From contig CAYWFK010000004.1 in NCBI GenBank assembly GCA_964457375.1, positions 8,499-72,498 of the forward strand: a stretch of 64,000 bases of DNA, in the 5' to 3' direction. A program made the translations under genes and the position numbers. The DNA is from an uncultured Anaerolineales bacterium. GTDB taxonomy: Bacteria > Chloroflexota > Anaerolineae > Anaerolineales > UBA11858. The notes beneath the pieces were generated by a model that did not search any database, was not told where the DNA came from, and saw nothing but the letters and a program-made list of their open reading frames with translations. Shown one piece after another: positions 2,629 through 62,453 of this stretch. Each line of letters opens with the position of its first letter. Position 1 is the first letter of the stretch.

Positions 2629-3201
2629 ATGCAAAAACTGCGAAAAACCGATTTGTACTGGCTCCTGGCTTACCCGCTCTACCAGCTGGTTGGCACCCTG
2701 AGGCACGAGTCCGGCCACGCTATCGCCGCACGGTTAGCCGGCGCGCGTATCATCGATTTCGTCTGGTTCCCGACATGGCTGCCCGACAGAGGATTTACCT
2801 GGGGGTACGTCCGCTGGACTGGCCATACCGGATGGCTGGTACTTGCAGCCCCCTACATTGCCGACCTGATTACCTTCCTTCTTTTTTACTACATCTGTAC
2901 ACACGTGCGTTTCCGCAGCCACTGGGTATGGGTGAACTTCGTCATTTTCGGGATGTTTTCTCCGCTGGCGAATTCACTTTACGCTTACCTGCGCGCAGGC
3001 AACCCGTACAGTGACGTCGGCAGGCTGATGAAACTCCTGCCGCAACCGGCGTTACACAGTTATTTTATCCTTACGCTTCTCCTGTATATCCTCGGTTTGG
3101 GAAGCCTCCTTCCCTTCAAGCGCCGCAAAACCATTCCGCAGCAACCCGCCCGGGATCAAACAAGGAGCCGCACCTCACACCATCGAACACCCGAAGCGTA
3201 A
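2629..3201 (+). CDS. polytopic membrane protein with HExxH (M50B-like/DUF3267-like putative zinc peptidase)
   Basis: RHESGHAIAARLAG motif lies near the N-terminus and is followed by several hydrophobic helices. The layout resembles M50B-like membrane metallopeptidases. Confidence 0.55.
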   Translation: MQKLRKTDLYWLLAYPLYQLVGTLRHESGHAIAARLAGARIIDFVWFPTWLPDRGFTWGYVRWTGHTGWLVLAAPYIADLITFLLFYYICTHVRFRSHWVWVNFVIFGMFSPLANSLYAYLRAGNPYSDVGRLMKLLPQPALHSYFILTLLLYILGLGSLLPFKRRKTIPQQPARDQTRSRTSHHRTPEA

Positions 3202-12500: not shown

Positions 12501-13000
12501 CCGCGAAACAAGCCGGCTGCCATTTCCAGATGCTCACAGCATGTTTTGCATGCTTCGATTTTCCTGTGCGAGTGATTTTTTGCAGTCACCACCAAAGAAG
12601 AAAACGTCTCGACATCCAGGTTGTACGCACTCTCCGGATTGAATTGAATATCCTGCCGGGAAATTCGCAACCGGGGCGGACTCGCCGCAGCATCCCTGAT
12701 TACGCTGCGCAAATTTGCCAAAGCGTCCCGCAGATTTTTCAGCGCAACCTTTTCAGACCGTCCGGGCCAAAGCATTTCTGCTAAAACTTCACGGCTATGG
12801 GGACGTCCGGATTCGACCATCAGATAAGCCAGCAAGATACGTACTTTCTGCGAATCAAAATGCGTCAGGTTCACATCATCCAAACCCGCCTGAAATACCC
12901 CCAAGAGAGACACTCCCAATTGCGCCATTAATATGATTATAGCAGAGGAGATTATCTCCCCCGGCGTTTTCCCGACGCTTGATTTGTAGAATGGATCCAT
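9557..13000 (-). CDS. SARP/BTAD - NB-ARC (STAND) ATPase - TPR transcriptional regulator (AfsR-like)
   Basis: N-terminal winged-helix plus BTAD region (ERALDFAYRQVEIDPWRETAYEQLMLLLVHCGERSTALKQYQVCRKILADELGIEPT). Walker A is AGVGGVGKT and Walker B is LLLVLDNFEQ, followed by about 450 aa of TPR repeats (NNLG...A..Y...SL). The true start may be the internal ATG at 12928 (MAQLGVSLLGVF). Confidence 0.9.
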   Translation of the reverse strand: MDPFYKSSVGKTPGEIISSAIIILMAQLGVSLLGVFQAGLDDVNLTHFDSQKVRILLAYLMVESGRPHSREVLAEMLWPGRSEKVALKNLRDALANLRSVIRDAAASPPRLRISRQDIQFNPESAYNLDVETFSSLVVTAKNHSHRKIEACKTCCEHLEMAAGLFRGHFLEGMFLNGSHQMQNWIALRRERYDQQAQYVFSALVQYYIRQMKYERALDFAYRQVEIDPWRETAYEQLMLLLVHCGERSTALKQYQVCRKILADELGIEPTESIRRLYEQIRTGEMPAMPQSPPPAGFPMQFTSFVGREEELKQIAGKLQNPACRMLTLAGVGGVGKTRLALQAAMEQTFAFRDGVYFVPLDAVSQFPALVMAIAESLSVSFWGKDDLPGKVIDFLRKKELLLVLDNFEQFLAGDAAGVDFLEEILREAKSVVLLVTSRQAVRLAAEWLFEVRGFQYPEREDDAKPVDSYQAVQLFLERSRQVQACFEPSGADLQAIVGICSLVEGLPLGVELAAALVRVHSCSRIFGFMEQRMGTLRSDIRNVPERHRSLQAVFTCSWDLLTRREREAFMALSVFMGGFTFEAADDVLARWKRGDAEGGKQATERISGLVFGLVDKSLLRFDAGENRFQMHGLVHRFARKKLDEFPDAAVQVRRSHAVWCACFLAGKAPAMFGEEQAAVLKLLRSENGNLSAAWKWALTAGEDELVWQMAPGLFRFYSLQGWEAQGLDAFTKAVETFGKREEAAKRTRLFARLLAYAGVFKMRLSSYREARADLQSSLDISTEKDDKETQAFCLLNLGQIGYNTGDWSLSYECYENSRRINQQLGNFRGKALCENNLGILVSRQGKFDKALEYWEASLTYFTESGDLSRKGSLQNNLGVIYRRLGQYASAAACLKDALHAFDILHDQRSVAGVYNNCGLLAKEWGKYQQAEVYFQKSLAICQEIGERKGNVFCLNNLGLLALAREETDKAEDYFRRSYALSTEIELLSSKATALHNLGMAAVRKGNIDTAQRFFADSLALKMQLGNESGSGHTYLELGKLAMKVHRERDVLTHLQKAWKIASEIRSRPLMLEILFVWAKRIYDSGDTEKAAGLLAAVIGNPACLGEVKAEAERFAMDKKLDVTLSDGYMENPDPEMLADSMLRGIAG

Positions 13001-13249: not shown

Positions 13250-15046
13250 ATGATCAACAAACGCAGCTTTCTTGTATTACTGGCAATGTGCCTGCTTTCC
13301 TTTACCGGACAAAGTGCCGCTCAGCCATCAGTCACTTCTCAATCCGGCGGCGATGGCACCACCGAGGACACCTCACCGGCAGCCACAACGCTGCTTGTCT
13401 CGCTGGAAACCAACCCGCTTGTCGTCGACACCGGTATCAACGAAAACATCACCCTCATTGCACACACAGACGGGTCGATTGACAGTGCATCCGTTTCACT
13501 TGCCAACGGCACGACAGTGCCCATGACGAAACTCGGCATCGGGCTTTTCAGTGTCGTACTCACCCATCAACAGGTTTTGTACCATTACAACCAAACACTT
13601 TACCCGAATGTCAACCGTTATGGATTCATCAATCTTTTCATCGGAAGTTTCCGCGTTCTTCGCGGCAGGCTGGATATTGGCGTCGATGACGGCAAATTCC
13701 CGTCCGCAGCCATCTCATCGCTCGCATCAGACGCTCAGGCCACACCGCACCTGGTCAACATCGTCCGCAGTTTTGTCGATCCGTCCAAAATCGACCAGCA
13801 GGCAGTCACCAAACGTTTCTATCAGCTTTATGGGGACGATTATGATTTCATCAATATCATTTCCGTCCCCGAACACTTTTCGAACCGCTATCATTATCAA
13901 GTCAAAAATACCGTTTCCGGCATCGGTTTGAGCAAATTCGATAATACCGCAGACTATGGCAGCGCCGGAAAACTTAAGGGCATCACCCGTTTCCCAATTC
14001 CGGTTCTGTATTTCGACGGTGCATCCCGCGCACACTCCCACGAAACCGCACATCAATGGCTCCAGTTTCTTAATAATGTCACCAAACTTCAGGGAATAAC
14101 CCCGCACTGGCCTATATCCGAATTAGCCCGTTCGGTCATGGGGTACAGTTCAACGGGAGGTCAAGGGCTTGACTTCCCCTGGAATCTAACCCCCAAGGGG
14201 AACGGCGATTACACAGCCCATTACACCCCGCTTGCCGACGATTACTTCCAAAACATGGATCTCTATCTCATGGGTTTTGCCGCTCCGTCCGAGGTTGGCA
14301 ACTATGTTGTCTTTACCAATCAAAACCAAACTCTCTGCGATGGCTGCACCATTACCAAACCGACTGTGTCGGTCGGGGTTCAGGATGTTACCGCCCAATA
14401 CGGCGCCCGTACCCCCGGTTATCCGAACACACAGCATCATTTCAGAATCGCCACCATCATCGTATCGAAGCAGCTTCTCTCAGCCAGGAACATGAAATAT
14501 TTCGATTATTTCTCCCGGCGGGGCGAAGCCATGATTCCCATTCAGGGAAACATCCCCTGGTTCAATGCCACAAAACAGCGCAGCACGCTATCCATGGGGC
14601 TAGGCAATGATTGCAACACAAACACCACAGCCGACCTTTGGATATACAGCCACACCACATCCCCCGTTGTTCCTCAAGTCAACACTCAATTTACTATCTA
14701 CGCATCTGTAAACAACGCATCTGCCAATACTTCCCATCAACTTACCATCTTCAACACGTTGTCAAATGGGCTTACCTTCATTTCGGCAAAACTAAACGGC
14801 AGTACGTCCCGTTGTTATGGTGACAAAACCATCATTTGCACCTTCGATACCCTTCATGCAAGCGAGAACTTGACTCTGGCGATAACCGTTCGCGCAGCAA
14901 CCAAGGGCTATTATTTTCATCGCATCGGTGTTTCCGGCTGTAACCCCGACCAGACACCCACCGACAACGCTGCAACCCTCACAATTCCGGTCGGCATTCA
15001 ATTCAACAACAAAATTTATATTCCATTCGTTATCAAAAGCCAATAA
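13250..15046 (+). CDS. secreted HExxH (gluzincin-like) putative metallopeptidase with C-terminal DUF11-type domain and YIPFVIK tail
   Basis: Signal peptide MINKRSFLVLLAMCLLSFTGQSAAQ. HETAHQW resembles the M1 HExxHQW motif and a Glu lies 23 aa downstream. DLYLMGF is also present. The C-terminal roughly 110 aa look like a DUF11 repeat, and the protein ends NNKIYIPFVIKSQ. Confidence 0.75.
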   Translation: MINKRSFLVLLAMCLLSFTGQSAAQPSVTSQSGGDGTTEDTSPAATTLLVSLETNPLVVDTGINENITLIAHTDGSIDSASVSLANGTTVPMTKLGIGLFSVVLTHQQVLYHYNQTLYPNVNRYGFINLFIGSFRVLRGRLDIGVDDGKFPSAAISSLASDAQATPHLVNIVRSFVDPSKIDQQAVTKRFYQLYGDDYDFINIISVPEHFSNRYHYQVKNTVSGIGLSKFDNTADYGSAGKLKGITRFPIPVLYFDGASRAHSHETAHQWLQFLNNVTKLQGITPHWPISELARSVMGYSSTGGQGLDFPWNLTPKGNGDYTAHYTPLADDYFQNMDLYLMGFAAPSEVGNYVVFTNQNQTLCDGCTITKPTVSVGVQDVTAQYGARTPGYPNTQHHFRIATIIVSKQLLSARNMKYFDYFSRRGEAMIPIQGNIPWFNATKQRSTLSMGLGNDCNTNTTADLWIYSHTTSPVVPQVNTQFTIYASVNNASANTSHQLTIFNTLSNGLTFISAKLNGSTSRCYGDKTIICTFDTLHASENLTLAITVRAATKGYYFHRIGVSGCNPDQTPTDNAATLTIPVGIQFNNKIYIPFVIKSQ

Positions 15047-15076
15047 ACCCTGTTCCCCAAAACAAAGGAAAAAGTC

Positions 15077-16594
15077 ATGTTCCTGAAAACAGATGTCATC
15101 AAACGCCCACTTGAAAAAGGAATGCAAATCGTCAAAACGTGTTTACCATTCATGCTCATGGTAGTCATGGCAATCCCGATAAGCTTCTTCAACCGGGAAT
15201 CAGTCAGCGCCGCGCCGCAATCTACCTTCATCGTAGTCGCCGACGCTGATGATTCAAACGCCCATGATAAAAACCCAGGAGACGGTATTTGTGCCGACCA
15301 ATTGGATACCTGCACCTTGCGGGCTGCAATTGAAGAAGCAAACGCCCATCATGGCGCAGATACGATTACATTCTCTCAACAGATGTCCATTATGATCGAT
15401 AGTACAGAAGGCCCCCTGCCTGCCCTGGTCAAAACGGTGAAAATCGACGCCAGCAGCATGTGGAATACAACCCTCGACCAGCCGGGAGTAACAATCAATG
15501 GGAACGGCGCTCATTTCAACGGACTTCGAATTTCCGCCCTCTACTGTGAAGTTTACGGACTGACGATTAGAAATTTCTATTGGAGTGCTATTATCATCAA
15601 TACAAGCAACAACACCATTGGGGGCACAACGAAAACACAGAGAAACGTCATTTCCGCCAATGCAAATAACGGGATTGCCATCCTTGGCAATCAGGCGAAT
15701 TCGAACACAATTCAGGGGAACTTCATTGGCATCAATCCAAAGGGAAACGCAAAATTACCGAATAAACACAACGGCATTCTCATAAAAGACGGTGCATCTT
15801 ACAACAAGATTGTTTCCAATGTCATTTCCGGTAATCTTCTGGATGGTATTCTCATCCAGTCTTCCAATACGCAACTCAGCTACGGAAACAAAATCGGCAA
15901 CAATGTCATCGGTCTTTCTGATGACCTCGGCACAATAATTCCCAACAAAGGAAACGGCATCAGCATCATGTCATCACCGAATACAAAAATCGGCGGTCCC
16001 GGCCTTTCCGGAAATATGATTACCGGGAACAGTATCAACGGCATCTATCTTTTTGCATCAAACGATACCCTGATTCAAGATAACATCATCGCCGGAAACA
16101 ACCAGGATGGCATCTATATCCACAATAGCCAAAAAACGAATGTCCTTTCCAATATCATCGACAATCAGGAACAAAACGGGATACTCATCAATGGCAGCAC
16201 CGGGAGCACTGCCAACAAAAACAATCTCACCCGGAACAGTATTTATTCCAACAAAAAGAAAGGGATTTCCCTGATAGGGAACAGCAACAACAATATTCAA
16301 CCCCCAATCATCGGTTCCGCAAACAGCCACGGTGCAGCAGGAACCGTTCCCAATGGCGTCCGCATTGTCGCAGTTTTTTCAGATAGTGAGAATGAAGGGA
16401 AAATTTACCACGGGCAATGTATCGTCAATACAATCACCCACCAATGGTTTTATACCGGTGCGATTACCGGCCCGCATGTAACTGCACTCGCATATGACCT
16501 CGATGGCAATACATCCGAGTTCTCAACGCCTTACACAATCAGCAATCCGGGTAGTTACCAGATTTATCTGCCATTCGTCTTGCGCAACCCCTAA
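15077..16594 (+). CDS. secreted parallel beta-helix repeat protein with CSLREA-like N-terminal module and YLPFVLR tail
   Basis: Signal/anchor sequence, then GDGICADQLDTCTLRAAIEEANAHHGADTITF, a CSLREA-domain variant. More than 12 PbH1-like repeats follow (N.I.GN...GI.I). DLDGNTSEFS is present and the protein ends SYQIYLPFVLRNP. Confidence 0.8.
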   Translation: MFLKTDVIKRPLEKGMQIVKTCLPFMLMVVMAIPISFFNRESVSAAPQSTFIVVADADDSNAHDKNPGDGICADQLDTCTLRAAIEEANAHHGADTITFSQQMSIMIDSTEGPLPALVKTVKIDASSMWNTTLDQPGVTINGNGAHFNGLRISALYCEVYGLTIRNFYWSAIIINTSNNTIGGTTKTQRNVISANANNGIAILGNQANSNTIQGNFIGINPKGNAKLPNKHNGILIKDGASYNKIVSNVISGNLLDGILIQSSNTQLSYGNKIGNNVIGLSDDLGTIIPNKGNGISIMSSPNTKIGGPGLSGNMITGNSINGIYLFASNDTLIQDNIIAGNNQDGIYIHNSQKTNVLSNIIDNQEQNGILINGSTGSTANKNNLTRNSIYSNKKKGISLIGNSNNNIQPPIIGSANSHGAAGTVPNGVRIVAVFSDSENEGKIYHGQCIVNTITHQWFYTGAITGPHVTALAYDLDGNTSEFSTPYTISNPGSYQIYLPFVLRNP

Positions 16595-16778
16595 TCGGGG
16601 GCAAATGGCAAAACAAACACAATCATCCCGAACACCAGCCGGCCTGCTGATAATCCAATCCAAATTACGGCATCGAATTAGTCCGCGATGAAATTACCGG
16701 CAGGCTGGCTGCAAAAGAATACAAAACACGCCTAAACGCTGCCATGTCCGTCAATCACCGTTATTCGCGAAGCAAAAA

Positions 16779-17174
16779 TCAGTCGCTTTTGGGAATCTCG
16801 GTCACAGAAACGCCGGAACGATTTTGCTTCAGCAGCTCTGCTGTCTGACGGGTATTCTCTTCGATTGCAAGGAACAAATAAATTCCATCGCCCAAGGCAT
16901 AGAATATCAGCGATAACAAAATCCCATTAACGATGCTAACCAAGCCCAGCAAAGAAGCGCTAATCATGCCGCCCAAAGGACCCAATACCTGCATCCCATC
17001 CGGCTGCATGCTAAACCTCATCATTGCATGGTCCAGATTGTTTAATGACAAAGCCCCAAAAACAACAGAAACCATTAATCCGAGAACCAGCAGAATCGTG
17101 ATGAGTAAAATGAATATCCCCACCAATTTAAAGAAAGTACCAATGATTCGGAGCACCTTATACCGTTTTTCCAT
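16779..17174 (-). CDS. hypothetical membrane protein
   Basis: Start moved to ATG 17174, which sits behind GAGGAGG. 131 aa with 3-4 TM helices. Confidence 0.55.
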   Translation of the reverse strand: MEKRYKVLRIIGTFFKLVGIFILLITILLVLGLMVSVVFGALSLNNLDHAMMRFSMQPDGMQVLGPLGGMISASLLGLVSIVNGILLSLIFYALGDGIYLFLAIEENTRQTAELLKQNRSGVSVTEIPKSD

Positions 17175-17364
17175 CGCCAACCTCCTCGTTCCTGAGAATC
17201 TGTTTTCTATACGGGCAGTCACATACCTTCGGAGAGTCGCATTTCCCAAGCATCAAGATACCGGCACAGAACTGATTACATGCCACACTGCATATCACAG
17301 TGGCATGAACAAATCCGGTAATGTTTTGGTTTGGCGGTAAACCGCATCGGCACAAAAAAGGAAA

Positions 17365-17874
17365 CTATTTCTTCCCTTTTTTCTTATTGTTCTTGCTTTT
17401 CTTGTCTTTCTTGCCTTTTTTACCGCTTTTTTTCTTTTTACTCATATCCGTCTCGTTTGTTAATCCCGCATCCGGCAGGTCTTCCGCAGCATCGGGAATC
17501 AACGCCACAACTTCGATTTCGATCATCGCCCCCAAAGGCAGGGAAGCCACAGCGACTGTCGAGCGGGCTGGTTTCTTTTCACCCACATAACCGGCATAAA
17601 TCCGGTTGATTTCGCCAAAGTCTTTCATATAGCGCAGGAAAATCGTCGTCTTGATCACATGCTCGAACCCTGAACCGGCCGCATGAAGGACAGCGCTCAG
17701 GTTTTCAAGCACCTGCACCGCCTGAGCTTTCACACCGCCGCTCACCATTTTTCCCGTTTTCGGGTCGATGCCAATTTGCCCGGCAGTGTAGAGCAAATTT
17801 CCGATCTTTACTGCCTGGGAATAAGGTCCGACAGCCGCAGGAGCATTTTCGGTAGCAATCAATTCTTTATCCAT
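17365..17874 (-). CDS. ridA: RidA family (YjgF/UK114) reactive-intermediate deaminase with Lys-rich C-terminal tail
   Basis: ENAPAAVGPYSQAV..G.LLYTAGQIG.DP..G and ARSTVAVASLPLGAMIEIE are canonical RidA motifs. Start at ATG 17874 behind GGAG. An extra 40-aa tail ends KKKKSGKKGKKDKKSKNNKKKGKK. Confidence 0.9.
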   Translation of the reverse strand: MDKELIATENAPAAVGPYSQAVKIGNLLYTAGQIGIDPKTGKMVSGGVKAQAVQVLENLSAVLHAAGSGFEHVIKTTIFLRYMKDFGEINRIYAGYVGEKKPARSTVAVASLPLGAMIEIEVVALIPDAAEDLPDAGLTNETDMSKKKKSGKKGKKDKKSKNNKKKGKK

Positions 17875-17992
17875 AACTTCACTCCATAAGAACCACAAAA
17901 TACGATTAAGTACTTATACTGTACCCCAAATCCGAACAGATTACAAGGGGAAAAGCAAAAACAATCGGTTTTCGTTCCCCCTTCGGCAAACA

Positions 17993-18907
17993 TCAGGCTG
18001 CCTTTTCTTCACCCTGAAAATTCACCCCGGCAATCCGTTGTTCTGCAAGCCGGCAATATGCTTCGCTGACTTCGAAACCCACATAGTGCCGTCCGGTTTT
18101 CAACGCGGCGAGTGCCGTAGTACCGCTCCCGATAAAAGGATCGAGGATAATATCTCCGGCAAATGTATACAGCGAAATCAAACGACGGGGCAGCTCCATC
18201 GGGAAAGGCGCCGGATGGCCAATTCGGGAAGCCGAAGCTGTCGGGAAACGCCAGATACTCTTGGTGTATTCAAGAAATTCATCCCGTAAAATCGTCGGTT
18301 TGCGTCCCATTCTCTCCCGCTTGAAACGGCTCTTGGAAAAAACCAGAATATACTCGTGTACATCCCGCAAAGTCGGGTTGGAAGCAGACATCCAGCTTCC
18401 CCACGCTGTCGAGTTTCCCGCACTGGCGCCTTTATCCCAGATAATTTCCCCGCGCATTAAAAACCCGATTTCCGTCATTAGCCGGGCAAGATACGCGTTG
18501 AGGGGAATATACGGTTTCCGCCCAAGGTTGGCAATATTGACACACGCCCTCCCCCCGGGCACCAACACCCGAAACGTCTCTGCAAACACCCTGTTCAGCA
18601 GTGCAAGATATTCTTCCAAATCAAGATCGTCATCATATTCCTTGCGGACATTATACGGAGGAGAAGTAACCATCAGGTGCACACTATTATCCGGGAGGCA
18701 GTCCATGAATTCACTGCTTGAATTCCGGATTGTATCGAGAATCGAACGGGGTATCGGATTTTCAATTACAGGGGTTTCTTTTCCGCTGGCTTCGCCATCC
18801 TGTTTTTTCCCCCGATACATTTTGCCGGCATAAAAACGACGGGAATCATGGCTCTCTCTCCCGCCGCTTCCGAAGGATGATGTCTTCGTTTTTCGTCTTT
18901 TCGACAT
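17993..18907 (-). CDS. DNA methyltransferase, N4/N6 beta-class (SPPY motif, likely m4C)
   Basis: Motif IV is MVTSPPYN and precedes motif I, DPFIGSGTTALAA, which is the beta-class order. SPPY is typical of N4-cytosine enzymes. A basic N-terminal extension of about 50 aa is present. Confidence 0.85.
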   Translation of the reverse strand: MSKRRKTKTSSFGSGGRESHDSRRFYAGKMYRGKKQDGEASGKETPVIENPIPRSILDTIRNSSSEFMDCLPDNSVHLMVTSPPYNVRKEYDDDLDLEEYLALLNRVFAETFRVLVPGGRACVNIANLGRKPYIPLNAYLARLMTEIGFLMRGEIIWDKGASAGNSTAWGSWMSASNPTLRDVHEYILVFSKSRFKRERMGRKPTILRDEFLEYTKSIWRFPTASASRIGHPAPFPMELPRRLISLYTFAGDIILDPFIGSGTTALAALKTGRHYVGFEVSEAYCRLAEQRIAGVNFQGEEKAA

Positions 18908-18927
18908 AAAATCGTTTGATTACAATA

Positions 18928-19485
18928 TCAGGATTGTGAAAGTTTATAGGAGAGAGGAATAGTACGGTGTTCTTTTTCAGCCTGATTCGTACGCTGGTCA
19001 AGGTGCCTGACCAGCACAGCGCTGGTAAAGACAAACAACCGTCTGGGCGTCGGGTTGTCATTGGGGTGCAGCACCTCTGTCGGAATGCCAAGCCGGAAAC
19101 AAATTTTGCGCACATCCGGATCATCGAAAGTTTGGCCATTGACCTGGCTGACAAGAATATTGCGTATCTTGTCGATCAACAGCAAGTCTTCATATTCATC
19201 CTTGCTGACCAGCCCCAATGCATAAGCAGAAGTAACAAGCGTACGAAAGGAACCCAAAGCCTGTCCCGGGTCCAGGATTTGGCTGACAATATCAGGTTCA
19301 TCGATGAAAAATGTCGTGAGTAATTGCCGAAGCTGATTTTCGAGATAGGTTGCAGAAATGATCGCAGTTGTGCGATCACTTTTGTTATGGAATTCCCTTA
19401 AAAACTTTTTCCAGTCCTTTTTCTTTTTCCTTGGAATGAGCCCGTCATGTTCTCTCATAGTTCGTCCTTGATCCCGGATAATCAT
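18928..19485 (-). CDS. MtlR/YggD-like helical protein
   Basis: AIISATYLENQLRQLL ... ALGSFRTLVTSAYALGLVSKDEYEDLLLIDKIRN aligns by eye with E. coli MtlR (PLGDLSVRLKLIYGLGVINRQEYEDAELLMALRE). The gene ends 20 nt upstream of the methyltransferase. Confidence 0.6.
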   Translation of the reverse strand: MIIRDQGRTMREHDGLIPRKKKKDWKKFLREFHNKSDRTTAIISATYLENQLRQLLTTFFIDEPDIVSQILDPGQALGSFRTLVTSAYALGLVSKDEYEDLLLIDKIRNILVSQVNGQTFDDPDVRKICFRLGIPTEVLHPNDNPTPRRLFVFTSAVLVRHLDQRTNQAEKEHRTIPLSYKLSQS

Positions 19486-19729
19486 TCGAATTCCGTACTT
19501 TTAATTATAACCTGCTATTGCATTCCTACTATACACCAAATCCGTTAAGTTTGCACTGATAAAATTGTTGGGTCTTTCCGAATTCTTCCGGCTGAAAAGC
19601 GGCGGCTGGCAGCATCACCGGAATTTTCAACCGGTTTCGCTGCCTTGTGTCTTGTACTCATGATACCAGGCAAAGATACTTTTCCTGCTGTTTGCTCTGA
19701 CGCCGCCAACGGTTCAGATACGTTTTATG

Positions 19730-21406
19730 TTATGGCAATCCGCTGGCTTTGGCAGCCAAAGGAAGAAAAATAAACCACCCCGGATAAAAAGCGTTGTTCG
19801 AAACCCCCGACCAATCCCCATTTGTATTTTGTGTTTTCAGTGCAAAGTAAATCGTCGCATGCCCAACAGAAACGGCATCCGAGAAGAAATCCCGTGTGCC
19901 TGTCAACGAATCCGTCAACACGCTGGCAGCATGCCAGTTCTCATCGCTAATCAATCCGCCGCTATACCGCAGCGTTGTCGTAATTGCGAATTGCGGCGGT
20001 GTCCAGTGCAAGGTAAACGTCAGAACACCGCCCTTGCTGATAACATCGGTAAGCCGCAAATCGCCAATCGCTTGCGGCACCGGCAGAACATACTCATCCG
20101 CGCCAATATCCGCGGCACTGCCGGCAGGGCGTTCATCCCCGTCGAAATCATCGCGTACCTCCGGAAGCAAAGAAACCTGGTCGATATAAGAAACTGCATG
20201 CGGTTTCAGGTGCAGATCGCCGCCGGCGACATCCACAAAGGAAGCCATGGGAACATTTTCCCGGTTATCTGACAACACGGCACTGCCCCCACGGTCACGC
20301 AGATTGTGGCTCACCAGATTGTTTCTGATTTCAGCAGAAGTATGGCCAAAGCGCCATTCGATCGATGAAAACGGAGCAACAGTCGAGGCAACCGAATTAT
20401 GCAGCACTTTTGCACCACAAGCCTGTGCAAGGCAAATGCCGCAATCGAAGCCGAACGCCGAAGCAAACAAGGCGCTGCTTCCGGCTGAAACAAAGTTGTT
20501 GCGGATCATTCCGCCGTAATGTTCGACAAACCCGCCGCCGGCACCCGGGCAAGGATTATCCGCATATGTGCGGCCGCTTCCGTTTTCTGTCAATCCCAAA
20601 CCGATCCCCCGTGCATTGTCCATCAATTGATTGCGCTCAATCAGCGTATCTCTGCTGCCCCGCCAAAAGTGAATCCCGTGCTCCGAAAGCCCGCTTTCAC
20701 ACCAAAACCCCTCGATTAGATTATCGCGAATCAACCAGCCCCTTGCCTGATGGGCATCGATTCCCCCGGTGTAACAATCGTCATGGATATGCGAACGTCC
20801 CGCATTCGTCAAACGGATTACCGAACAGGCAACCGTACCGTCATCCGGAAAATGCGCCGAATCCACCGGGTTTATCTTGATTGCCTGCTGACCGGGATCG
20901 ATGATATGCACATTGTAAATCAATGTGCCGGTAACATCCGCTGATGAAGTAGACATCACGTGAATCGGATGGTGAACGGCTCTCCTTATCGTCAAGTCAG
21001 CTACGGTGGCATTCGAAGCCACAATCTGGATGATTTCATCGGACAGATAATTTCCATCGAGAACCACAGCATCCGGGTTTCCGCTCGCCGAACGCAGGGT
21101 AACACCAGCCGTATCGATACGCAGATACGCACCATCCAGCGAATAGTTTCCATCCGCCAGCAGAATTGTCGTGCTCACGGCAGCATGGTTGACCGCATCG
21201 ACAAGCCCGGTCACGTTATCAACGTGAACAACATTACCGGCAGCCATTGGCAGCACTCCGCAATGACGGCGCACCGTTCGAGGCGAGGCAGGCGCTTGCG
21301 AATACACGCGCACAGCCTGCACCCAGACTCCGGAAAACGCAACTGCCAGAAATAAAACAGGAAAAACAATCAGCAAACCGCGGAAGTGGATATTTTTGGT
21401 TTTCAT
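19730..21406 (-). CDS. secreted right-handed beta-helix protein with Fn3-like C-terminal domain and FLPLAAK tail
   Basis: Start at ATG 21406 (MKTKNIHFRGLLIVFPVLFLAVAFSG is the signal). Beta-helix repeats include NLIEGFWCESG..HGIHFW and RNQLMDNARGIGLG. DIGADEY is present and the protein ends GWFIFLPLAAKASGLP. Confidence 0.8.
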   Translation of the reverse strand: MKTKNIHFRGLLIVFPVLFLAVAFSGVWVQAVRVYSQAPASPRTVRRHCGVLPMAAGNVVHVDNVTGLVDAVNHAAVSTTILLADGNYSLDGAYLRIDTAGVTLRSASGNPDAVVLDGNYLSDEIIQIVASNATVADLTIRRAVHHPIHVMSTSSADVTGTLIYNVHIIDPGQQAIKINPVDSAHFPDDGTVACSVIRLTNAGRSHIHDDCYTGGIDAHQARGWLIRDNLIEGFWCESGLSEHGIHFWRGSRDTLIERNQLMDNARGIGLGLTENGSGRTYADNPCPGAGGGFVEHYGGMIRNNFVSAGSSALFASAFGFDCGICLAQACGAKVLHNSVASTVAPFSSIEWRFGHTSAEIRNNLVSHNLRDRGGSAVLSDNRENVPMASFVDVAGGDLHLKPHAVSYIDQVSLLPEVRDDFDGDERPAGSAADIGADEYVLPVPQAIGDLRLTDVISKGGVLTFTLHWTPPQFAITTTLRYSGGLISDENWHAASVLTDSLTGTRDFFSDAVSVGHATIYFALKTQNTNGDWSGVSNNAFYPGWFIFLPLAAKASGLP

Positions 21407-21426
21407 GCCTGTCCGTTCCTTGCCAT

Positions 21427-23790
21427 TCAAGGCAAATAACCGCGAAAGATCACGGGAAGATATTGCATCGCCCCGCCAACCAGCAGACGGGCAATCGCGG
21501 TTCGTATGTCACCGTTGCTTTTTCCGTCGACAGGTACGGCATACCAGACGCCCGGCGAGGTTAACACAGTATGCGTATCGGTCATCGTCAAGCGGGCGGT
21601 ATTCCCCGGGTTCACCTGCAACGGTGTCAGATAAACGTCCAAACCGGCCATCGTAATGGGCACACTCAGGCTGACTGTTCCGGTAAACCCGCCGACAGCC
21701 CGCACACTTACAGTAAAAACCGCCGTCTCCCCCGGGGCGATTTGCATCACGGGGGGCAGCACATCAAGCGCAAAACCGCTGCCCTCATATTCGAAAGCGC
21801 CAATATCCGGGGCGCTGCCATTGAAGGCATCATTGATACCGGGAAGTACCACGCCCGCATCGATCAAACTACTGGATTCCCCCAGCGTATAATCCGCAGA
21901 AGCGGCATCAACAAAACCCGGTTTGGCATCCGTTCCATGCTGCTCTTGCCCGGTCTTCGTTCGAAACACATTCAAAGAGCGCATATGCCGATCCGGACCG
22001 CTTCCCCAATAAACATACTCATCCGGATTGGATGTATACAGATCATCGTAATCGAAATTGATTGGCTGGGTTTCATTATAATCGTTCAATGCATAATTCG
22101 TCCCTGCCCAGATATTGTTACGGCTGACAATGTTTTTCCAGCTGCCGGGTGCCTTGATGTAAATACCATTGTTCCCAGGCAGCGCCGCATCGCTGGTGTT
22201 ATGAAACAAATACATCACGCCCGATTTCCCGTAACCGCTGTTGAACTTGAACGGGCTTCCCGAAAAGGTATTGTTTCCCGCACCGGTATGATAAATCAGG
22301 TTGCGAATGACAAAGACAGGTCCTTTATAGACCGGTGCCAGAGAAATGCCCATCAGAACATCATGAAAAGTATTCGACCAGATGCGCACATTGCTGCAAG
22401 TGCCGTCGGTTTCCACACCGTCATCACCCGCGTTGTAAACCAGATTTTCGTAAAAATCAGTTTCGCTCGTCTCGCTCCCGGCCGTCTCAGGGCATATCCC
22501 CAGGCCATCGAAATAATCATGAAAAGAATTGCGTCGAATCACATTTCCCCGCCCGGTCATCGGGCTATAAAACCGAACTCCGCCGGTTTCCAGCCTGCTT
22601 CCTCCCTTGACAGCATGCCAATCCCATTGAAAATCCGTATCGCGAAAAGTATTATGCTGAATCAGGTTACGGTTCGAATTGCGTTTGAACCCGATACCCA
22701 GATCATTGAGTTCGAAAGTGCAATGCTGAACCAGATTATCGTTCGCATTATTGAAATACAGCGCCTTTGCCCAATTCCCCCGGCCATAATGCCGAAAAAC
22801 AAGATGATCGAAATAAATTGCGTCCTGTTCGATTGCGAAAGCATAATTGAAACGTGAAACCACAATCGCAGCACTGCTCGGGTTTTTGTCGCCGGCCAGA
22901 TGCACATACAAAACCTTGCCGTTTGCATAAAAACCGGGAATTCCCCAAACCAGGTTTTGCAAATCGGAAAGGCTTTGATAAGGATAAAGCCGCTGCCCGT
23001 CAGCGGTCACCAAATGCGTATCAGGCGCATGAACATTTGTCCGGTAGATACCCCCGCCCTGATCCTGCCAGGAAAACGTCGCCGGATCTCCTCCGTCGAG
23101 AATCGCCTTCTCACCGGTATAACTGCGAATGACGATTGGCGCACCGGCGCCCCCCGAACAAGGCATATCCATTTCTCCGCGGTAATAAACACCCCCTCGC
23201 AAAACCACCGCATCACCCGCATGCGCCATACCCAGCGCTTGCTCCAGCGCACAGGGCGCAGCCAGCGAGCAAACCATCCCGGAGCCGTCCGGGCTGGCAA
23301 CGAAGGTATGCAGCGGAGCAGGCAGGGACAATTCCGGGCGTGTTACTCCCGAAGCATCGAGAACGGTTCCGTTTAACGGGCCATTGTCCGGGTCTGCCAA
23401 AGAAACCCGCACAACCACCTGCTCTGCCGGTTTCAGCCAGAAGATGCTGCCGGCAAAACGCGTTGCCGATATGCGGGTAAGTGGGAAACCCTGCCGGTAT
23501 CCACCGCCCGCACCTTCCCGGTAGGTCAGTGTAGCCGTGGCATCCTCGTCCGGGTCATCATTTGCGTCAATTGCAACGATAACACCCATCGAATGATAAT
23601 TCCCGAAAAGCGAAAGCGCTGCTGCCGCAGGCGCCAACGAATTTGAGACGTCTCCGTGTTGCATTTGCCCCGCGCGCACGGAACTTGTATCTTCGGCTTG
23701 CGCGGCAATCACACCGGCGCGGGTAACCATTACTGTCAAAACCAATATAACAACCGGCAAACCAAACCGATACCACTTTGTTTGTATCAT
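21427..23790 (-). CDS. secreted right-handed beta-helix (pectate-lyase-fold) protein with Ig-like domains and YLPVIFR tail
   Basis: Signal peptide MIQTKWYRFGLPVVILVLTVMVTRAGVIAAQA. There is a long beta-helix region (NLVQHCTFELNDLGIGF, NLIQHNTF, IRRNSFHD, RIWSNTFHD). PDIGAFEYEG is present, followed by an Ig-like C-terminal domain, and the protein ends AMQYLPVIFRGYLP. Confidence 0.8.
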   Translation of the reverse strand: MIQTKWYRFGLPVVILVLTVMVTRAGVIAAQAEDTSSVRAGQMQHGDVSNSLAPAAAALSLFGNYHSMGVIVAIDANDDPDEDATATLTYREGAGGGYRQGFPLTRISATRFAGSIFWLKPAEQVVVRVSLADPDNGPLNGTVLDASGVTRPELSLPAPLHTFVASPDGSGMVCSLAAPCALEQALGMAHAGDAVVLRGGVYYRGEMDMPCSGGAGAPIVIRSYTGEKAILDGGDPATFSWQDQGGGIYRTNVHAPDTHLVTADGQRLYPYQSLSDLQNLVWGIPGFYANGKVLYVHLAGDKNPSSAAIVVSRFNYAFAIEQDAIYFDHLVFRHYGRGNWAKALYFNNANDNLVQHCTFELNDLGIGFKRNSNRNLIQHNTFRDTDFQWDWHAVKGGSRLETGGVRFYSPMTGRGNVIRRNSFHDYFDGLGICPETAGSETSETDFYENLVYNAGDDGVETDGTCSNVRIWSNTFHDVLMGISLAPVYKGPVFVIRNLIYHTGAGNNTFSGSPFKFNSGYGKSGVMYLFHNTSDAALPGNNGIYIKAPGSWKNIVSRNNIWAGTNYALNDYNETQPINFDYDDLYTSNPDEYVYWGSGPDRHMRSLNVFRTKTGQEQHGTDAKPGFVDAASADYTLGESSSLIDAGVVLPGINDAFNGSAPDIGAFEYEGSGFALDVLPPVMQIAPGETAVFTVSVRAVGGFTGTVSLSVPITMAGLDVYLTPLQVNPGNTARLTMTDTHTVLTSPGVWYAVPVDGKSNGDIRTAIARLLVGGAMQYLPVIFRGYLP

Positions 23791-27354: not shown

Positions 27355-27599
27355 TTGTCCTTCCGTATTCAGCAATTTATTCAGGGAAAGCCGTTTTCTG
27401 CAAAAATATCGAAACAGCCAACCCACAAACCCCAATAATTGTCATTATACACTGCCGCAAGCAATCACGCCCCTCTGAATTGAACGCCAGTAATATCAAA
27501 CCACAACCGGAAATCAAAAAACGTTCTGGTGAACCCCGTTGAACGACATACCAGTAATGAAGCCCGACACAGCCATTTCAAACCCACAAAATCAGGGGC

Positions 27600-45902: not shown

Positions 45903-46035
45903 TCATCTGATGGTGAACACCGGAAGCAGAAGTATCAAGCTCAAAACTTCCTGCACCGCGGTTTTCGTCACTGCCCCTGCCGTTTCATCCGGCATATCCG
46001 TATAAAAATTGACACCAATCAACCCGGAGCCATTC

Positions 46036-56317: not shown

Positions 56318-56334
56318 CAATCAAGGCAGTGACA

Positions 56335-57450: not shown

Positions 57451-57478
57451 ACCGCCCGGGAAAATCAAATCCGAATCG

Positions 57479-57523
57479 AACCGAAGCGCAAGCGGTCATT
57501 ACAGTTTGCGCTTCGGTTTTTTG
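57479..57523 (+). terminator. rho-independent terminator of the marR operon
   Basis: AACCGAAGCGCAA-14 nt-TTGCGCTTCGGTT is a 13-bp stem followed by TTTTTTG. Confidence 0.8.
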
Positions 57524-57554
57524 TGAAACCACCGGTCAAACCGGCGAAAACGGA

Positions 57555-58931
57555 TTACTTGCCTTTTGCAACCAAAGGCAAAAAGACCGGCAATCCCTGA
57601 TGCGCCACTTTCAGATTGCCTTTGGCTGGTAAAAGATATTTGTTAAGTTCCCGATAAGCGATTTTTGCCAAACCCGCCGAATTGACATCCACGGCAACCC
57701 CCATACCTTCATCTACCCAGGAATTTCCCCTATCCACAACTTCGCAATACCATGAAAAGAAAGGGTTTTGGGGACCGCAATTGGTTTTTCCCGGAAGGGC
57801 GGCAATTGCGCTGCCCGGTCTGGCAACCTTTACCACTGCCGGGGCAGAAGAGACAGCAACACTTTGATAAGCAATCAACGGGTAACCGTTTCCGTCTTTC
57901 ACAATAGCCATGCCCATTGGCTTGGCACTCGAACCGACATCATCGATTTTTTCACACTGCCACTCCCAGTGCATCGACACACTGCTGAAACCACAATTCC
58001 CGCCGGTGCCGATATAAGCCGCATATTCCAGGGTGGAACTTGTCACGTTTTGATACGCAATGTGTGGCGTACCGTTGTTCTCCACATACAGCGAAACGAA
58101 CTTGCCGGTATCCAGCGTGTTTTGCTTCACGCTCCTGCTCACCCAGAGTGACCCGGTGTAGGATACGACCACCGGTGTTTTGTTCGTCGAATGGTAATAA
58201 GCCACCGATGGTTTTCCATTCGCATCGATATCAAGCGAAGCATAATAACCGACACCTTTTCCTGATGCCACAACGTCACATTGCCACTTATTGAGAACAA
58301 TACCGGTACCGCAATTACCGGTCCCGTTACCCACATAATGCGCCACGATAAGTTCTTTCGATAATGCTGTGCTATGCTGGTAGGCAACATAAGGAACCCC
58401 ATTGGTATTAAATTTCACCGAGGTATATTTACCATAATACGACAAAACCGATAAGGAAGACTGAACCTTGTACCGATTCCAGTTCAGCCCGCTGGAAACA
58501 TTATTGCCAAGGATGTAGTACAAACCGTGATTGGTTGCATCGTAATACGTAATGATGAATTTCACACCGTTTAAGGTATGTATCGTATCGATCGAATTGT
58601 ACATACCCACATCGCCGCTGGAAACAAGTTTATGACAATGCCACATATTCGCCGGCCCGCAATTTCCGGCTTTCCCGTCGAAAATGGCAAGATACAGGTC
58701 TTTTCCTGCTGCATCGTAATAACTGACAAAGATCTGTCCGGTTACCGGTTCGACAGAAATCGCCACATGCTCACTCACATCAGGCGTCTTATCAATTCGA
58801 TTGATAACCCAACGTGCATTTCCCAGCGATTGAGGCGGTATGACCGATAAGGTTTTCGCAAAACCCGTCAAGATCAAAACGCCCGAAAACACCAGAGAAA
58901 CCAAAATAGCCGCAAGTCGTTTCGTTTTCAT
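57555..58931 (-). CDS. secreted 7-blade beta-propeller-like repeat protein with Cys loops and FLPLVAK tail (paralogue 1)
   Basis: Start at ATG 58931 behind GAGGAG. After the signal/anchor come seven repeats of about 45-60 aa (G.Y.S...D..G.P.IAY...L..A). Four repeats carry a [GT]NCG-x(4-10)-W-x-C loop. The protein ends LPVFLPLVAKGK. Confidence 0.8.
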   Translation of the reverse strand: MKTKRLAAILVSLVFSGVLILTGFAKTLSVIPPQSLGNARWVINRIDKTPDVSEHVAISVEPVTGQIFVSYYDAAGKDLYLAIFDGKAGNCGPANMWHCHKLVSSGDVGMYNSIDTIHTLNGVKFIITYYDATNHGLYYILGNNVSSGLNWNRYKVQSSLSVLSYYGKYTSVKFNTNGVPYVAYQHSTALSKELIVAHYVGNGTGNCGTGIVLNKWQCDVVASGKGVGYYASLDIDANGKPSVAYYHSTNKTPVVVSYTGSLWVSRSVKQNTLDTGKFVSLYVENNGTPHIAYQNVTSSTLEYAAYIGTGGNCGFSSVSMHWEWQCEKIDDVGSSAKPMGMAIVKDGNGYPLIAYQSVAVSSAPAVVKVARPGSAIAALPGKTNCGPQNPFFSWYCEVVDRGNSWVDEGMGVAVDVNSAGLAKIAYRELNKYLLPAKGNLKVAHQGLPVFLPLVAKGK

Positions 58932-59481: not shown

Positions 59482-60888
59482 TTATTTGCTCTTCGCGACC
59501 AGCGGCAAATACAGGAACAAATGCTGTGCAGCGACTTTCAAGCGCCCCTTGTCCGGCGTTTCATACGTATCCAGTTCCTGATAAGCCACCACAGGTAAAT
59601 TCGCCGAGTTCATCGCCACGGATACAGACGAACCCTCCTCCGTATAGGTATTTATCCCGGCATCTACATAATCACAATACCACGTATGAAATCCCAAAAA
59701 CAGTGGCCCGCAATTCGTTTTGTAGAGAGAAACACCTGCCGCCACTTTCGGGCGGGCAATTTTCACTGCCGGCTGCACCTGAGCTTCCGCGCCATATTGA
59801 TAAGCGATCACCGGCAATCCGTGTGCATCACCGACCAGCGACAACCCCATCGGAATGCTCCCCGCGCCAACATCCTCGATTTCTCCGCAATCCCACTCCG
59901 AACGAAGCGTGATACTGTTGTATCCGCAGTTCCCTCCCGAACCGACATAACTGGCATACTCCACCGTACCTTTTGTTTCATTGTGATACGCAATATGAGC
60001 AACATTGCCATTATCTACGAACAATGAAACATCCCTGCCCGTTTTGTCGGTGCCGTTTTTAACATCCCGCAAAAGCCAGCTGGTGCCATCGAAACCCGCC
60101 ACCACCGGGATATTTTTATTTGCATCGTAATACGCAATTACAGGATGACCCGCACTGTCGAAATCCAGCGCAGCGTTGATACCTACCCCCTGCCCGCTGG
60201 CAACCGTATCACACTGCCACTGTCCCGCTTCGTCGCCTTCGCCGCAATTTCCCGTACCGTCCCCAACGAAATGCGCAAGCATTTGTTTGCTCGATGAAAG
60301 AAGAGACCGATTGTAAGCAATATACGGTATCCCGTTTTTATTGAATTTCAATGAGGTATATTGCCCGGTGCGATTCGTAATGATCGCACTCGATTGAACT
60401 TTACTTGCCAACCAGGAAAAACCGGAAGATTGATTGAACCCGCTAATATACTTCAGCCCGCGGTTTGTTGCATCATAATAGGATATGCCAAACTCGACAC
60501 CATCCGGGTTGCCAAGCGTATCAATCGAATTGAACTTCCCGACGTCGCCGACCGAATCAAGTTTGTGGCAATGCCAGGTGTTTCCCGGACCACAGTCACC
60601 TTTCTTGCCATCGTAAATTGCCAAATACAAATCTTTGCCGGCTTGATCATAATAACTGACAAAAATCTGGCCCGAAGACGGCTCTATGGATAGAGAAACA
60701 TACTCACCGACGTTTCTGGTGCCGTCGATCGTACTCAGCACCCATTGAGCATCCGGGTATGCTATTGCACTTGCCATCCGGGATTCGTGGTTTGCCTCAT
60801 GCACCGAAGCCTGAACAAGCCTTGTTCCTGCCACCCAGACAATCAATAAACCCAATGTCATCCCGATGACAACCGCTTTTTTCTTCAT
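59482..60888 (-). CDS. secreted 7-blade beta-propeller-like repeat protein with Cys loops and YLPLVAK tail (paralogue 2)
   Basis: Start at ATG 60888 behind AAGGAG. It has the same repeat architecture as 57555..58931. In the N-terminal block I hand-aligned, 73 of 107 positions are identical. The protein ends LFLYLPLVAKSK. Confidence 0.8.
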   Translation of the reverse strand: MKKKAVVIGMTLGLLIVWVAGTRLVQASVHEANHESRMASAIAYPDAQWVLSTIDGTRNVGEYVSLSIEPSSGQIFVSYYDQAGKDLYLAIYDGKKGDCGPGNTWHCHKLDSVGDVGKFNSIDTLGNPDGVEFGISYYDATNRGLKYISGFNQSSGFSWLASKVQSSAIITNRTGQYTSLKFNKNGIPYIAYNRSLLSSSKQMLAHFVGDGTGNCGEGDEAGQWQCDTVASGQGVGINAALDFDSAGHPVIAYYDANKNIPVVAGFDGTSWLLRDVKNGTDKTGRDVSLFVDNGNVAHIAYHNETKGTVEYASYVGSGGNCGYNSITLRSEWDCGEIEDVGAGSIPMGLSLVGDAHGLPVIAYQYGAEAQVQPAVKIARPKVAAGVSLYKTNCGPLFLGFHTWYCDYVDAGINTYTEEGSSVSVAMNSANLPVVAYQELDTYETPDKGRLKVAAQHLFLYLPLVAKSK

Positions 60889-61205: not shown

Positions 61206-62453
61206 ATGCCGAACAAAAGAATTTGGGTCATTGCAGGAATCCTGCTGCTTGTTTGCTTGATAGAAGTACCTTTTGTATTTGCATCAACCACAATTACCGT
61301 CGACACGACCGATGATGAATTTAACACAGACGGGGATTGTTCCTTGCGAGAGGCAATCCATGCAGCAGACACGGATACCGCCGTCGATAACTGCCCGGCA
61401 GGGAACGGGAACGATACCATCATCCTCCCTGCGGGTATTTATACCCTGACAGTAGCTGGTGCCAGCGAAAACCATGGGCTGACCGGCGATCTGGATATCC
61501 GCACCACAGACGGGCTAACGATACAAGGTGCAGATGTTTCGAATACAATCATCGACGGAGGCGGTATCGACCGGGTTTTCCATGTCGTTTCTTACAATGA
61601 CCGCCTTACTCTAAAAAAAATGACAATCCGCCATGGTTCCCCTCCAAGCGGGGAAAGTGCAGGCGGCATTCTCAACAATGGCATTCTTGTATTGGACCAC
61701 GTCGTTGTAAAAGATTCTGAAACAAAATCCACACCCAGCCAGAACCCTGTCGGCGGCGGCATTTGTAACGGTTGCGGCAACGGAACAGGAGTGTTAACGC
61801 TGGTCGATACGATCATCTCGGGGAACGAGTCTACACGTGGCGGCGGGATTTTCACCAACCACATCCTGACTATAACGCACAGCACCATCACCGCTAACAA
61901 AGCGAAATCAGGCGGTGGACTGGTAAACTACGGCAATGTCTCCATCATCAATTCAACCGTAAGCAATAACTCGGTAACCCATTCCACTTCGAATATCATG
62001 CACCTGAACAATTTTCTCACGATAACAAATTCAACAATCGATGGAATTTCTTCCCCGCCACACACATTCAACATCTACGCAATGTCTGCGGCGACGATGA
62101 CAATCGTCAACACCATCGTGACGAACGACCCTGCAAACTACAATTGTTCTGCTTACACAAACACGGTTCGATCACTCGGGCACAATCTTGACAATGGGAA
62201 CACATGCCATTTTTCCGCCACGGGCGATTTGACCAACACCAACCCCCTGCTTGGTCCTCTTGCGTCCAATGGCGGTGCGACCCCTACACATGCACTATTA
62301 ACCGGAAGCCCGGCGATCGATGCCGGAGATAACACCTACTGCCCGCAGACCGACCAGCGCTGGTTTTCCAGGCCTTTCGGATCAGCCTGCGATATCGGTG
62401 CGTTCGAGTTTTCGCTTCCGAAAATTTACCTGCCCTTTGTGCTGAAAAACTGA
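61206..62453 (+). CDS. secreted CSLREA-domain parallel beta-helix protein (choice-of-anchor-Q-like) with YLPFVLK tail
   Basis: Signal peptide, then the literal motif DGDCSLREAIHAA and beta-helix repeats. The C-terminal block GHNLDNGNTCHF..GDL...NPLLGPLASNGGATPTHALL.GSPAIDAG ... CDIGAFEF follows. The protein ends LPKIYLPFVLKN. AGGAGG SD. Confidence 0.85.
   Translation: MPNKRIWVIAGILLLVCLIEVPFVFASTTITVDTTDDEFNTDGDCSLREAIHAADTDTAVDNCPAGNGNDTIILPAGIYTLTVAGASENHGLTGDLDIRTTDGLTIQGADVSNTIIDGGGIDRVFHVVSYNDRLTLKKMTIRHGSPPSGESAGGILNNGILVLDHVVVKDSETKSTPSQNPVGGGICNGCGNGTGVLTLVDTIISGNESTRGGGIFTNHILTITHSTITANKAKSGGGLVNYGNVSIINSTVSNNSVTHSTSNIMHLNNFLTITNSTIDGISSPPHTFNIYAMSAATMTIVNTIVTNDPANYNCSAYTNTVRSLGHNLDNGNTCHFSATGDLTNTNPLLGPLASNGGATPTHALLTGSPAIDAGDNTYCPQTDQRWFSRPFGSACDIGAFEFSLPKIYLPFVLKN

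Follow-up and report, generated by a model that had tools for sequence, protein, structure and literature searches.

The window analysed here, a stretch of 64,000 nucleotides of contig CAYWFK010000004.1 (positions 8,499 to 72,498; assembly GCA_964457375.1) from an uncultured Anaerolineales bacterium, contains seven genes of exported proteins which end in a common short C-terminal tail. All seven belong to the YLP-box, a motif that is already curated and hence is not new. We consider it probable that the YLP-box is an ultrashort putative sorting motif which, as judged from the sampled loci, is carried by exported proteins of the cell surface in Chloroflexota with the exception of Dehalococcoidia, and that it would serve to anchor these proteins through a factor of the cell envelope. 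Comparison of sequences gives good support to the view that the tail is a C-terminal sorting or anchoring signal which is exchanged for other signals in other lineages.

The seven tails and the YLP-box models

Two islands of the window, 13250-23790 and 57555-62453, hold seven long open reading frames (ORFs), four of them on the minus strand, that share a short C-terminal tail in the ORF listing; all seven ORFs and their tails are present as given in a preliminary description of this DNA. The core of the tail is [Y/F]-[L/I]-P in every case, and a relaxed pattern, Φ-[YF]-[LI]-P-Φ-Φ-x-[KR] plus 1-5 residues (Φ, hydrophobic), fits all seven, the stop codon following 1-5 residues after the basic residue in each. 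The pattern as literally written in the preliminary description fits five of the seven: protein 1, with I before Pro, and protein 4, with Q at the first position, depart from it.

The motif is covered by two models of NCBIfam release 20: NF050076 (sort_motif_YLP), which has 11 positions and a cut-off of 15 bits, and NF053834 (ultrashort_CTERM), with 10 positions and a cut-off of 10 bits. Both are described as 'YLP-box putative sorting motif-containing protein' and align on the ..Y-L-P-Φ-Φ-Φ-[KR] part of the C-terminus, ending at the basic residue. When the window tails were scored as isolated C-terminal pieces (20 amino acids; 20-30 amino acids across scans), five of the seven registered on these models and three (proteins 2, 6 and 7) reached a curated cut-off. 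The tails and their scores are as follows.

Protein 1: IYIPFVIKSQ, 15014..15043, plus strand, from the translation; I instead of L before Pro; not reported on the YLP-box models
Protein 2: IYLPFVLRNP, 16562..16591, plus strand; best match to the curated YLP-box models, NF050076 16.2 bits and NF053834 15.1 bits, passing both
Protein 3: IFLPLAAKASGLP, 19733..19771, minus strand, from the translation; A-A after Pro-Leu and a 5-residue extension past the basic residue; not reported on the YLP-box models
Protein 4: QYLPVIFRGYLP, 21430..21465, minus strand; YLPVIFR on positions 4-10 of NF053834, 7.7 bits, under the cut-off of 10
Protein 5: VFLPLVAKGK, 57558..57587, minus strand; NF050076 12.4 bits, under the cut-off of 15
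Protein 6: LYLPLVAKSK, 59485..59514, minus strand; NF053834 13.0 bits, passing the cut-off of 10
Protein 7: IYLPFVLKN, 62424..62450, plus strand; NF053834 12.2 bits, passing the cut-off of 10

The HMMER filters discard weak short matches, and the tails of proteins 1, 3, 4 and 5 fit the same position profile as the other YLP tails. Whole-protein scans with NCBIfam and Pfam reported no model on any window tail, and therefore routine annotation can miss the YLP-box. Among 89 diverse homologue tails, 40 match one of the two models and 38 the other, and no match to other sorting-signal models was found.

The preliminary description had presented the tail as a candidate undescribed sorting signal and knew of no named model for it. 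Its reading of the tail as a sorting or anchoring signal is supported comparatively, but since the two curated models that align to these tails already describe the motif, the claim of novelty was wrong. The same description had named an existing curated sorting-signal family as something that would speak against it, and the search of NCBIfam CTERM models found such a family.

A six-frame scan of all 3718 stop-to-stop ORFs of the window found no internal copies of the relaxed motif, while C-terminal copies were present only in the seven carriers and in an antisense ORF of 49 amino acids that runs across the DNA coding for the tail of the 57555 gene; the observation that no other coding sequence of the window ends in this way is confirmed with this single addition. 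The seven C-terminal motif endings among 61 predicted proteins compare with 0.0025 expected by an analytical, composition-based estimate and with 0.004 expected from 2000 shuffles. The tails are encoded by differing codons and the DNA located 3' of the tail genes is unrelated, and thus the conservation is at the protein level.

The tails of proteins 3 and 4, which are encoded by adjacent beta-helix genes, have a further 4-5 residues behind the basic one, with L-P immediately before the stop codon in both (ASGLP and GYLP), whereas in the majority of YLP tails only 0-2 residues follow K/R. The DNA coding for the tail of the 57555 gene (57451-57600) is in part palindromic (TTGCCTTTGGTTGCAAAAGGCAA) and its antisense frame reads DYLPFATKGKK, which matches the relaxed pattern; the palindrome could have arisen by chance or could be a hairpin at the gene end. 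A small polytopic membrane protein of 148 amino acids encoded at 46009-46455 (plus strand) has a tail-like ending, VIPLIIRFSHTPM, but lacks the aromatic residue, and this ending is most likely merely the end of a transmembrane (TM) helix.

The carrier proteins

The seven proteins that carry the tail are listed below.

Protein 1: 13250..15046, plus strand, 598 amino acids; signal peptide, HETAH (HExxH) motif, C-terminal DUF11 and YLP-type tail
Protein 2: 15077..16594, plus strand, 505 amino acids; parallel beta-helix (Beta_helix/NosD, weak CSLREA) and YLP tail
Protein 3: 19730..21406, minus strand, about 558 amino acids from ATG 21406; beta-helix (Beta_helix/NosD) and YLP tail
Protein 4: 21427..23790, minus strand, 787 amino acids; beta-helix (Beta_helix/NosD) and YLP tail
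Protein 5: 57555..58931, minus strand, about 458 amino acids from ATG 58931; propeller-like paralogue of protein 6 (51% identity) and YLP tail
Protein 6: 59482..60888, minus strand, 468 amino acids from ATG 60888; beta-propeller with a lectin- or sialidase-like fold and YLP tail
Protein 7: 61206..62453, plus strand, 415 amino acids; CSLREA N-terminal motif, beta-helix, choice-of-anchor Q and YLP tail

The longest-ORF starts of proteins 3, 5 and 6 lie slightly upstream of the ATGs used here (at 21430, a TTG, at 58976 and at 60963, respectively), and the internal ATGs at 21406, 58931 and 60888 put a basic and hydrophobic signal sequence at the N-terminus. A basic-plus-hydrophobic N-terminal signal or anchor is present in all seven carriers, as had been noticed earlier; the N-terminus of protein 1, for example, is MINKRSFLVLLAMCLLSFTGQSAAQ.

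The mature parts of the carriers belong to at least three unrelated architectures, and this earlier assignment (HExxH with DUF11, beta-helix, propeller) is upheld by Pfam and NCBIfam matches, by AlphaFold2 (AF2) models and by Foldseek. DUF11 of protein 1 is matched by Pfam with 51 bits at residues 469-579. The resemblance of one carrier to the choice-of-anchor type beta-helix family turned out to be true membership: protein 7 scores 102.7 bits on NF041518 (choice-of-anchor Q; residues 346-402), which clears the threshold of 25 bits, and 32.7 bits on TIGR04214. Its choice-of-anchor Q domain stops at residue 402, i.e., 13 residues before the stop codon, and the tail comes directly after it. Proteins 5 and 6 have no family match in Pfam or NCBIfam. 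The AF2 model of protein 6 is all-beta with a mean predicted local distance difference test score (pLDDT) of 89.5, and the top PDB matches to this model found by Foldseek are seven-bladed PLL/PHL lectins and also sialidase-type propellers.

In the model of protein 6 the tail is a coil with a pLDDT of about 57 located past the last strand (447-456); in that of protein 7, the mean pLDDT of which is 91.8, the last two 10-residue blocks have pLDDT values of 69 and 49 and are devoid of secondary structure. As modelled, the tail is a flexible appendage that follows the last folded domain and lies outside of the fold. Three exported proteins of the window that have no tail carry lipoboxes and therefore use a different anchor.

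Conservation and distribution of the tail

The tail is retained in homologues of the carriers. In the propeller family, 90 of the best 120 homologues (33-51% identity) end in a YLP tail, 74 of them in the strict and 16 in the relaxed form, and about half of the best 120 choice-of-anchor Q homologues carry the tail directly after 'CDIGAFE'. The best named homologues are from Chloroflexota (Ca. Brachytrichaceae, Caldilinea and Anaerolineales).

In a profile of 183 non-redundant tails, which is anchored on Pro so that the invariance of Pro in it is by construction, F or Y occupies position P-2 in 169 tails, L occupies P-1 in 158, K or R is found at P+4 in 158, and the C-terminus is at most 6 residues away from Pro in 162. 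Position P-3 is V, L or I, and Pro is followed by L, V/I/A, L/M and K/R. The consensus of the tail can be written as hydrophobic-[F/Y]-L-P-L-V-[L/M]-[K/R] with 0-2 further residues (up to 5 in the window). In a MAFFT alignment of 89 tails Pro is the sole invariant column.

The distribution of the motif among lineages was compared in 80 genome loci fetched through the CSLREA family. In 38 loci of Chloroflexota other than Dehalococcoidia the strict motif is found 19 times at the C-terminus versus once internally, and C-terminal strict motifs were absent from 32 loci of other phyla and from 8 Dehalococcoidia loci. An N-terminus resembling a signal peptide, as assigned by a hydrophobicity heuristic and not by SignalP, is present in 25 of 26 carriers versus 173 of 468 (37%) other predicted proteins (Fisher p = 7.6e-10). 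Pro/Thr-rich linkers precede some of the tails (loci L013, L028 and L031), as in wall-spanning anchored proteins. Enrichment among signal-peptide proteins, frequency at internal positions and conservation in orthologues had been proposed earlier as checks of the tail, and in the window and the sampled loci and homologues all three came out in its favor.

Several relatives of the carriers deviate at this position. The propeller relatives P0151, P0153, P0154, P0162, P0223 and P0232, of which one is named (Thermoanaerobaculales), have a common C-terminal motif 'DGFESGD..W..P' in place of YLP, which may be another lineage-specific C-terminal element. A CSLREA/choice-of-anchor Q homologue, P0007 (locus L082, 8538-9563), ends right after 'CDIGAYE' with no tail and is either a naturally tail-less copy or a product of assembly or annotation truncation. 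Just upstream of the CSLREA gene of Ca. Brachytrichaceae (locus L084, 9668-9940) there is a gene of a 90-amino-acid signal-peptide protein ending with LVFAPAVMR, and P0022, P0024 and P0026 (LFAPLLLR) share this F-A-P form of the tail.

Exchange of anchors and relation to known sorting signals

In other lineages the place of the tail is taken by sorting signals with a TM segment. Dehalococcoidia homologues have LPDTG or LPTTG followed by a TM segment and RRR at this position, Acidobacteriota homologues have VPTL or IPTL and a TM segment (IPTL-CTERM-like), and some Chloroflexota homologues have a Pro/Thr-rich stretch followed by Cys, a TM segment and RR. According to the preliminary description, the choice-of-anchor family swaps its C-terminal anchors between lineages, and choice-of-anchor Q homologues indeed end with LPxTG, IPTL/VPTL or other TM-plus-basic tails. 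The exchange is also seen in tandem surface-protein arrays: LPxTG occurs in 8 of 120 genes in Dehalococcoidia, while in the lineages with the YLP-box YLP occurs in 26 of 494 genes and LPxTG in none. Two arrays from Dehalococcoidia metagenome-assembled genomes (L011, 4914-11542, and L017, 2765-9951) consist of four tandem surface proteins each, every one of which ends with an LPxTG-like motif (ELPDTG, GLPxTG), a TM segment and basic residues, and they mirror the YLP islands.

The tails of the Cys type were found in the CSLREA homologues of loci L003, L006, L007 and L008 (ORFs near 10001-11400); Cys is invariant in them (e.g., PPTTPCAATGAFLAVLALFFRRL), and they have the classical tripartite structure and were not matched to a named model. 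These four loci have a common upstream operon coding for Tat-signal proteins and a membrane protein.

Seven attributes of tripartite C-terminal signals were listed in a preprint by Haft (10.1101/2023.06.07.544157), among which are at least three nearly invariant starting residues, a hydrophobic region of TM length and 2-5 terminal basic residues, as well as the presence of signal peptides in most carriers and the lack of any other relationship between the carriers (10.1101/2023.06.07.544157). The YLP-box has five of the seven attributes: it is C-terminal, it is multi-copy, it has a three-residue signature, and its carriers have signal peptides and are unrelated to each other. There are 7 copies in the 64 kb of the window, all of them terminal, and up to 4 per 20-kb locus elsewhere (L013). 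The two remaining attributes are absent. Only 3 hydrophobic residues separate Pro from K/R, the whole hydrophobic run is about 7-9 residues, and in the propeller family the residues upstream of the tail are polar (AYQRLQ); instead of a basic cluster, there is usually a single K or R at P+4 followed by 0-2 non-basic residues. The YLP-box therefore resembles the tripartite signals in its context and is outside of that class, in agreement with the earlier statement that the tail is not a classical tripartite signal.

A close analogy is to LPXTG signals recognized by sortases, which are likewise C-terminal, have an L-P core, occur on signal-peptide carriers of many folds in several copies per genome and, in the Dehalococcoidia homologues and arrays, take the position held by YLP in other Chloroflexota. 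Unlike LPXTG signals, the window tails (L-P-[LFV]-[VIA]-x-[KR]) lack T-G behind L-P-x as well as a TM helix, and have one basic residue in place of a cluster, and there is no sortase gene in the window. PEP-CTERM signals of exosortases, IPTL-CTERM, GlyGly-CTERM signals of rhombosortases and MYXO-CTERM signals of myxosortases share with the YLP-box the five attributes named above but differ from it by a TM-length segment and 2-5 basic residues. The eukaryotic CAAX box (Rce1/CPBP) is likewise ultrashort and C-terminal and has aliphatic residues adjoining the end of the protein, and proteases of the CPBP family act both on long signals and on very short ones such as CAAX (Haft, 10.1101/2023.06.07.544157). 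The likeness to CAAX is an analogy only: the YLP-box has no Cys and hence no prenylation site, its carriers are exported and not cytosolic, and no CPBP gene is found in the window. Finally, the choice-of-anchor Q family (NF041518), to which protein 7 belongs, is characterized by C-terminal anchors that vary between lineages, and its model covers the carrier domain and not the tail.

Possible modes of action

The proposed mechanism would start with Sec-dependent export of the carrier protein, after which the C-terminus would be retained at the membrane surface by its short hydrophobic run together with the one basic residue. An envelope factor confined to the lineage would then recognize the [F/Y]-L-P core. 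Most likely this factor would be a peptidase or transpeptidase associated with the membrane, and by attaching the protein to the cell surface it would play the part of sortase in the anchoring of LPxTG proteins. A more far-reaching version, to which we attach a chance of roughly one in three, is that the non-TM tail of about 10 residues is read by an undiscovered envelope factor restricted to Anaerolineae- and Chloroflexia-type Chloroflexota, by a mechanism outside of the motif-TM-basic paradigm that functionally replaces sortase/LPxTG anchoring in these lineages. Such a factor could be a soluble or peripheral peptidase or transpeptidase that binds C-termini, or a docking receptor.

Several points weigh against anchoring by an envelope factor. 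The analogy to known sorting signals may stop short of the mechanism, because the tail has neither the TM-length segment nor the basic cluster on which known sorting enzymes rely. No sortase, exosortase, rhombosortase or CPBP gene was found by Pfam and NCBIfam scans among about 47 window proteins, which bears out the earlier statement for the first three, and clustering of neighbors in 39 related Chloroflexota loci revealed no recurrent peptidase near YLP genes. The restriction to certain lineages is based on 80 loci chosen via one protein family, and the signal-peptide assignment is a heuristic. Seven propeller orthologues of the 59482-60888 protein (P0136, P0148, P0149, P0152, P0190, P0191 and P0231) have the FLPL core with an acidic ending (FLPLILDE, FLPLVPEE, FLPLIPEE, FLPLVIEHQ), and these are either decayed signals or an indication that K/R is dispensable. 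NCBIfam itself labels the YLP-box 'putative', and a search of the literature on the motif, the tail peptides and Chloroflexota sorting signals found no publication or experimental data on it; the sole record of the YLP-box seems to be in the database.

The alternative that survives best, which we regard as plausible although rather unlikely, is that the tail is a self-sufficient uncleaved anchor which alone holds the protein at the surface with no need of a processing enzyme. It could do so in two ways. In the first, the tail would lie in the cytoplasmic membrane, either in its outer leaflet or at the interface, and K/R and the free carboxylate would be placed at the head-groups. In the second, it would add a strand to a conserved receptor of the envelope, to an S-layer protein or to a sheath protein and be docked in this way. 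The placement of the tail within 0-6 residues of the true C-terminus and the basic residue at the fixed P+4 position are what would be expected if a free C-terminus or a short peptide at the interface were recognized, the window and the neighbors in the 39 loci yielded no candidate enzyme, and the tail is predicted to be free and flexible by the AF2 models. However, 7-9 hydrophobic residues with a central Pro would give a weak membrane affinity, the invariant Pro and the near-invariant aromatic-Leu-Pro core suggest specific protein recognition over bulk hydrophobicity, and no receptor was found either.

Much less credence can be given to a second-step export signal, by which the tail would, once Sec export is complete, direct the protein through an outer layer of the envelope or direct its assembly into that layer, as is done by the C-terminal domain of the type IX secretion system (T9SS) or by the beta-signal of outer-membrane proteins. 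The C-terminal location on signal-peptide proteins and the restriction to a lineage are as expected of such a signal, but the tail is far shorter than the T9SS domain, lacks the aromatic final residue of the beta-signal, and is carried by soluble beta-helix, propeller and DUF11 proteins and not by barrels; besides, in homologues the tail alternates with anchoring signals (LPxTG, IPTL-CTERM) and not with secretion domains. The chance that the tail is a structural or DNA-level artefact, i.e., the final strand of a fold which the carriers share, a terminator or repeat read in translation, or an artefact of annotation, is negligible in our estimation: in spite of the partly palindromic tail DNA at 57555 with its pattern-matching antisense ORF, the differing codons and downstream DNA rule out a repeat or terminator, the low-confidence coil outside of the domain in the two AF2 models (proteins 6 and 7) rules out a part of the fold, three or more unrelated folds carry the tail, and distant orthologues in many genomes keep it.

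Neighboring genes

Two peptidase genes of the window were considered as candidates for a sorting enzyme. A prolyl oligopeptidase (S9) is encoded at 25261-27435 (minus strand), 1.5 kb away from the first island, with Pfam scores of 372.7 and 209.9 bits; it has no evident signal peptide and its NCBIfam similarity to oligopeptidase B is sub-threshold only. The proximity of this gene to tails with an invariant Pro is probably coincidental. Neither this enzyme nor the M50B-like peptidase encoded at 2629-3201 recurs near YLP genes in the 39 loci, and as sorting enzymes both were set aside and are leads only. The clustering of these loci together with two extra syntenic ones, which added no protease, yielded regulators and unrelated operons.

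A gene of a large STAND-type regulator of 1147 amino acids (BTAD, AAA/NB-ARC and TPR) is located at 9557-13000 (minus strand) and is divergent from the first island. In 11 of the 39 loci of Chloroflexota (including L013, L031, L033, L035, L044, L046, L053, L066 and L075) homologous STAND-type regulators adjoin surface-protein genes of the CSLREA/YLP kind, and this recurrence may reflect a dedicated regulation of surface-protein islands.

The two halves of the first island are separated by genes of an N6/N4 DNA methylase and an MtlR-like protein (17993-19485, minus strand) and by a RidA-like gene and a gene of a small membrane protein (16779-17898), and thus the island is interrupted by unrelated genes. 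At 56329-57450 (plus strand), three genes converge on the propeller YLP gene: one of MarR, an unannotated one (roughly 56780-57064) coding for about 106 amino acids with two apparent hydrophobic segments, and one of a 129-amino-acid multi-TM protein. This arrangement is kept in a relative with about 50% protein identity (L082, 11586-12715; L083, 1825-2954).

Implications

Sludge, sediments and hot springs are rich in Chloroflexota, bacteria whose cell envelope is poorly understood. Their surface proteome would be easier to predict with a sorting tag that marks many of its proteins. The motif was known before, and several variant tails of the window lie below the curated cut-offs. Because it has no membrane-spanning segment, the YLP-box strains the usual model of a C-terminal sorting signal, and it points to a putative anchoring machinery. 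If the mechanism does lie outside of the motif-TM-basic paradigm, then both this machinery and what becomes of the tail would be new to biology, even though the motif itself is already curated.

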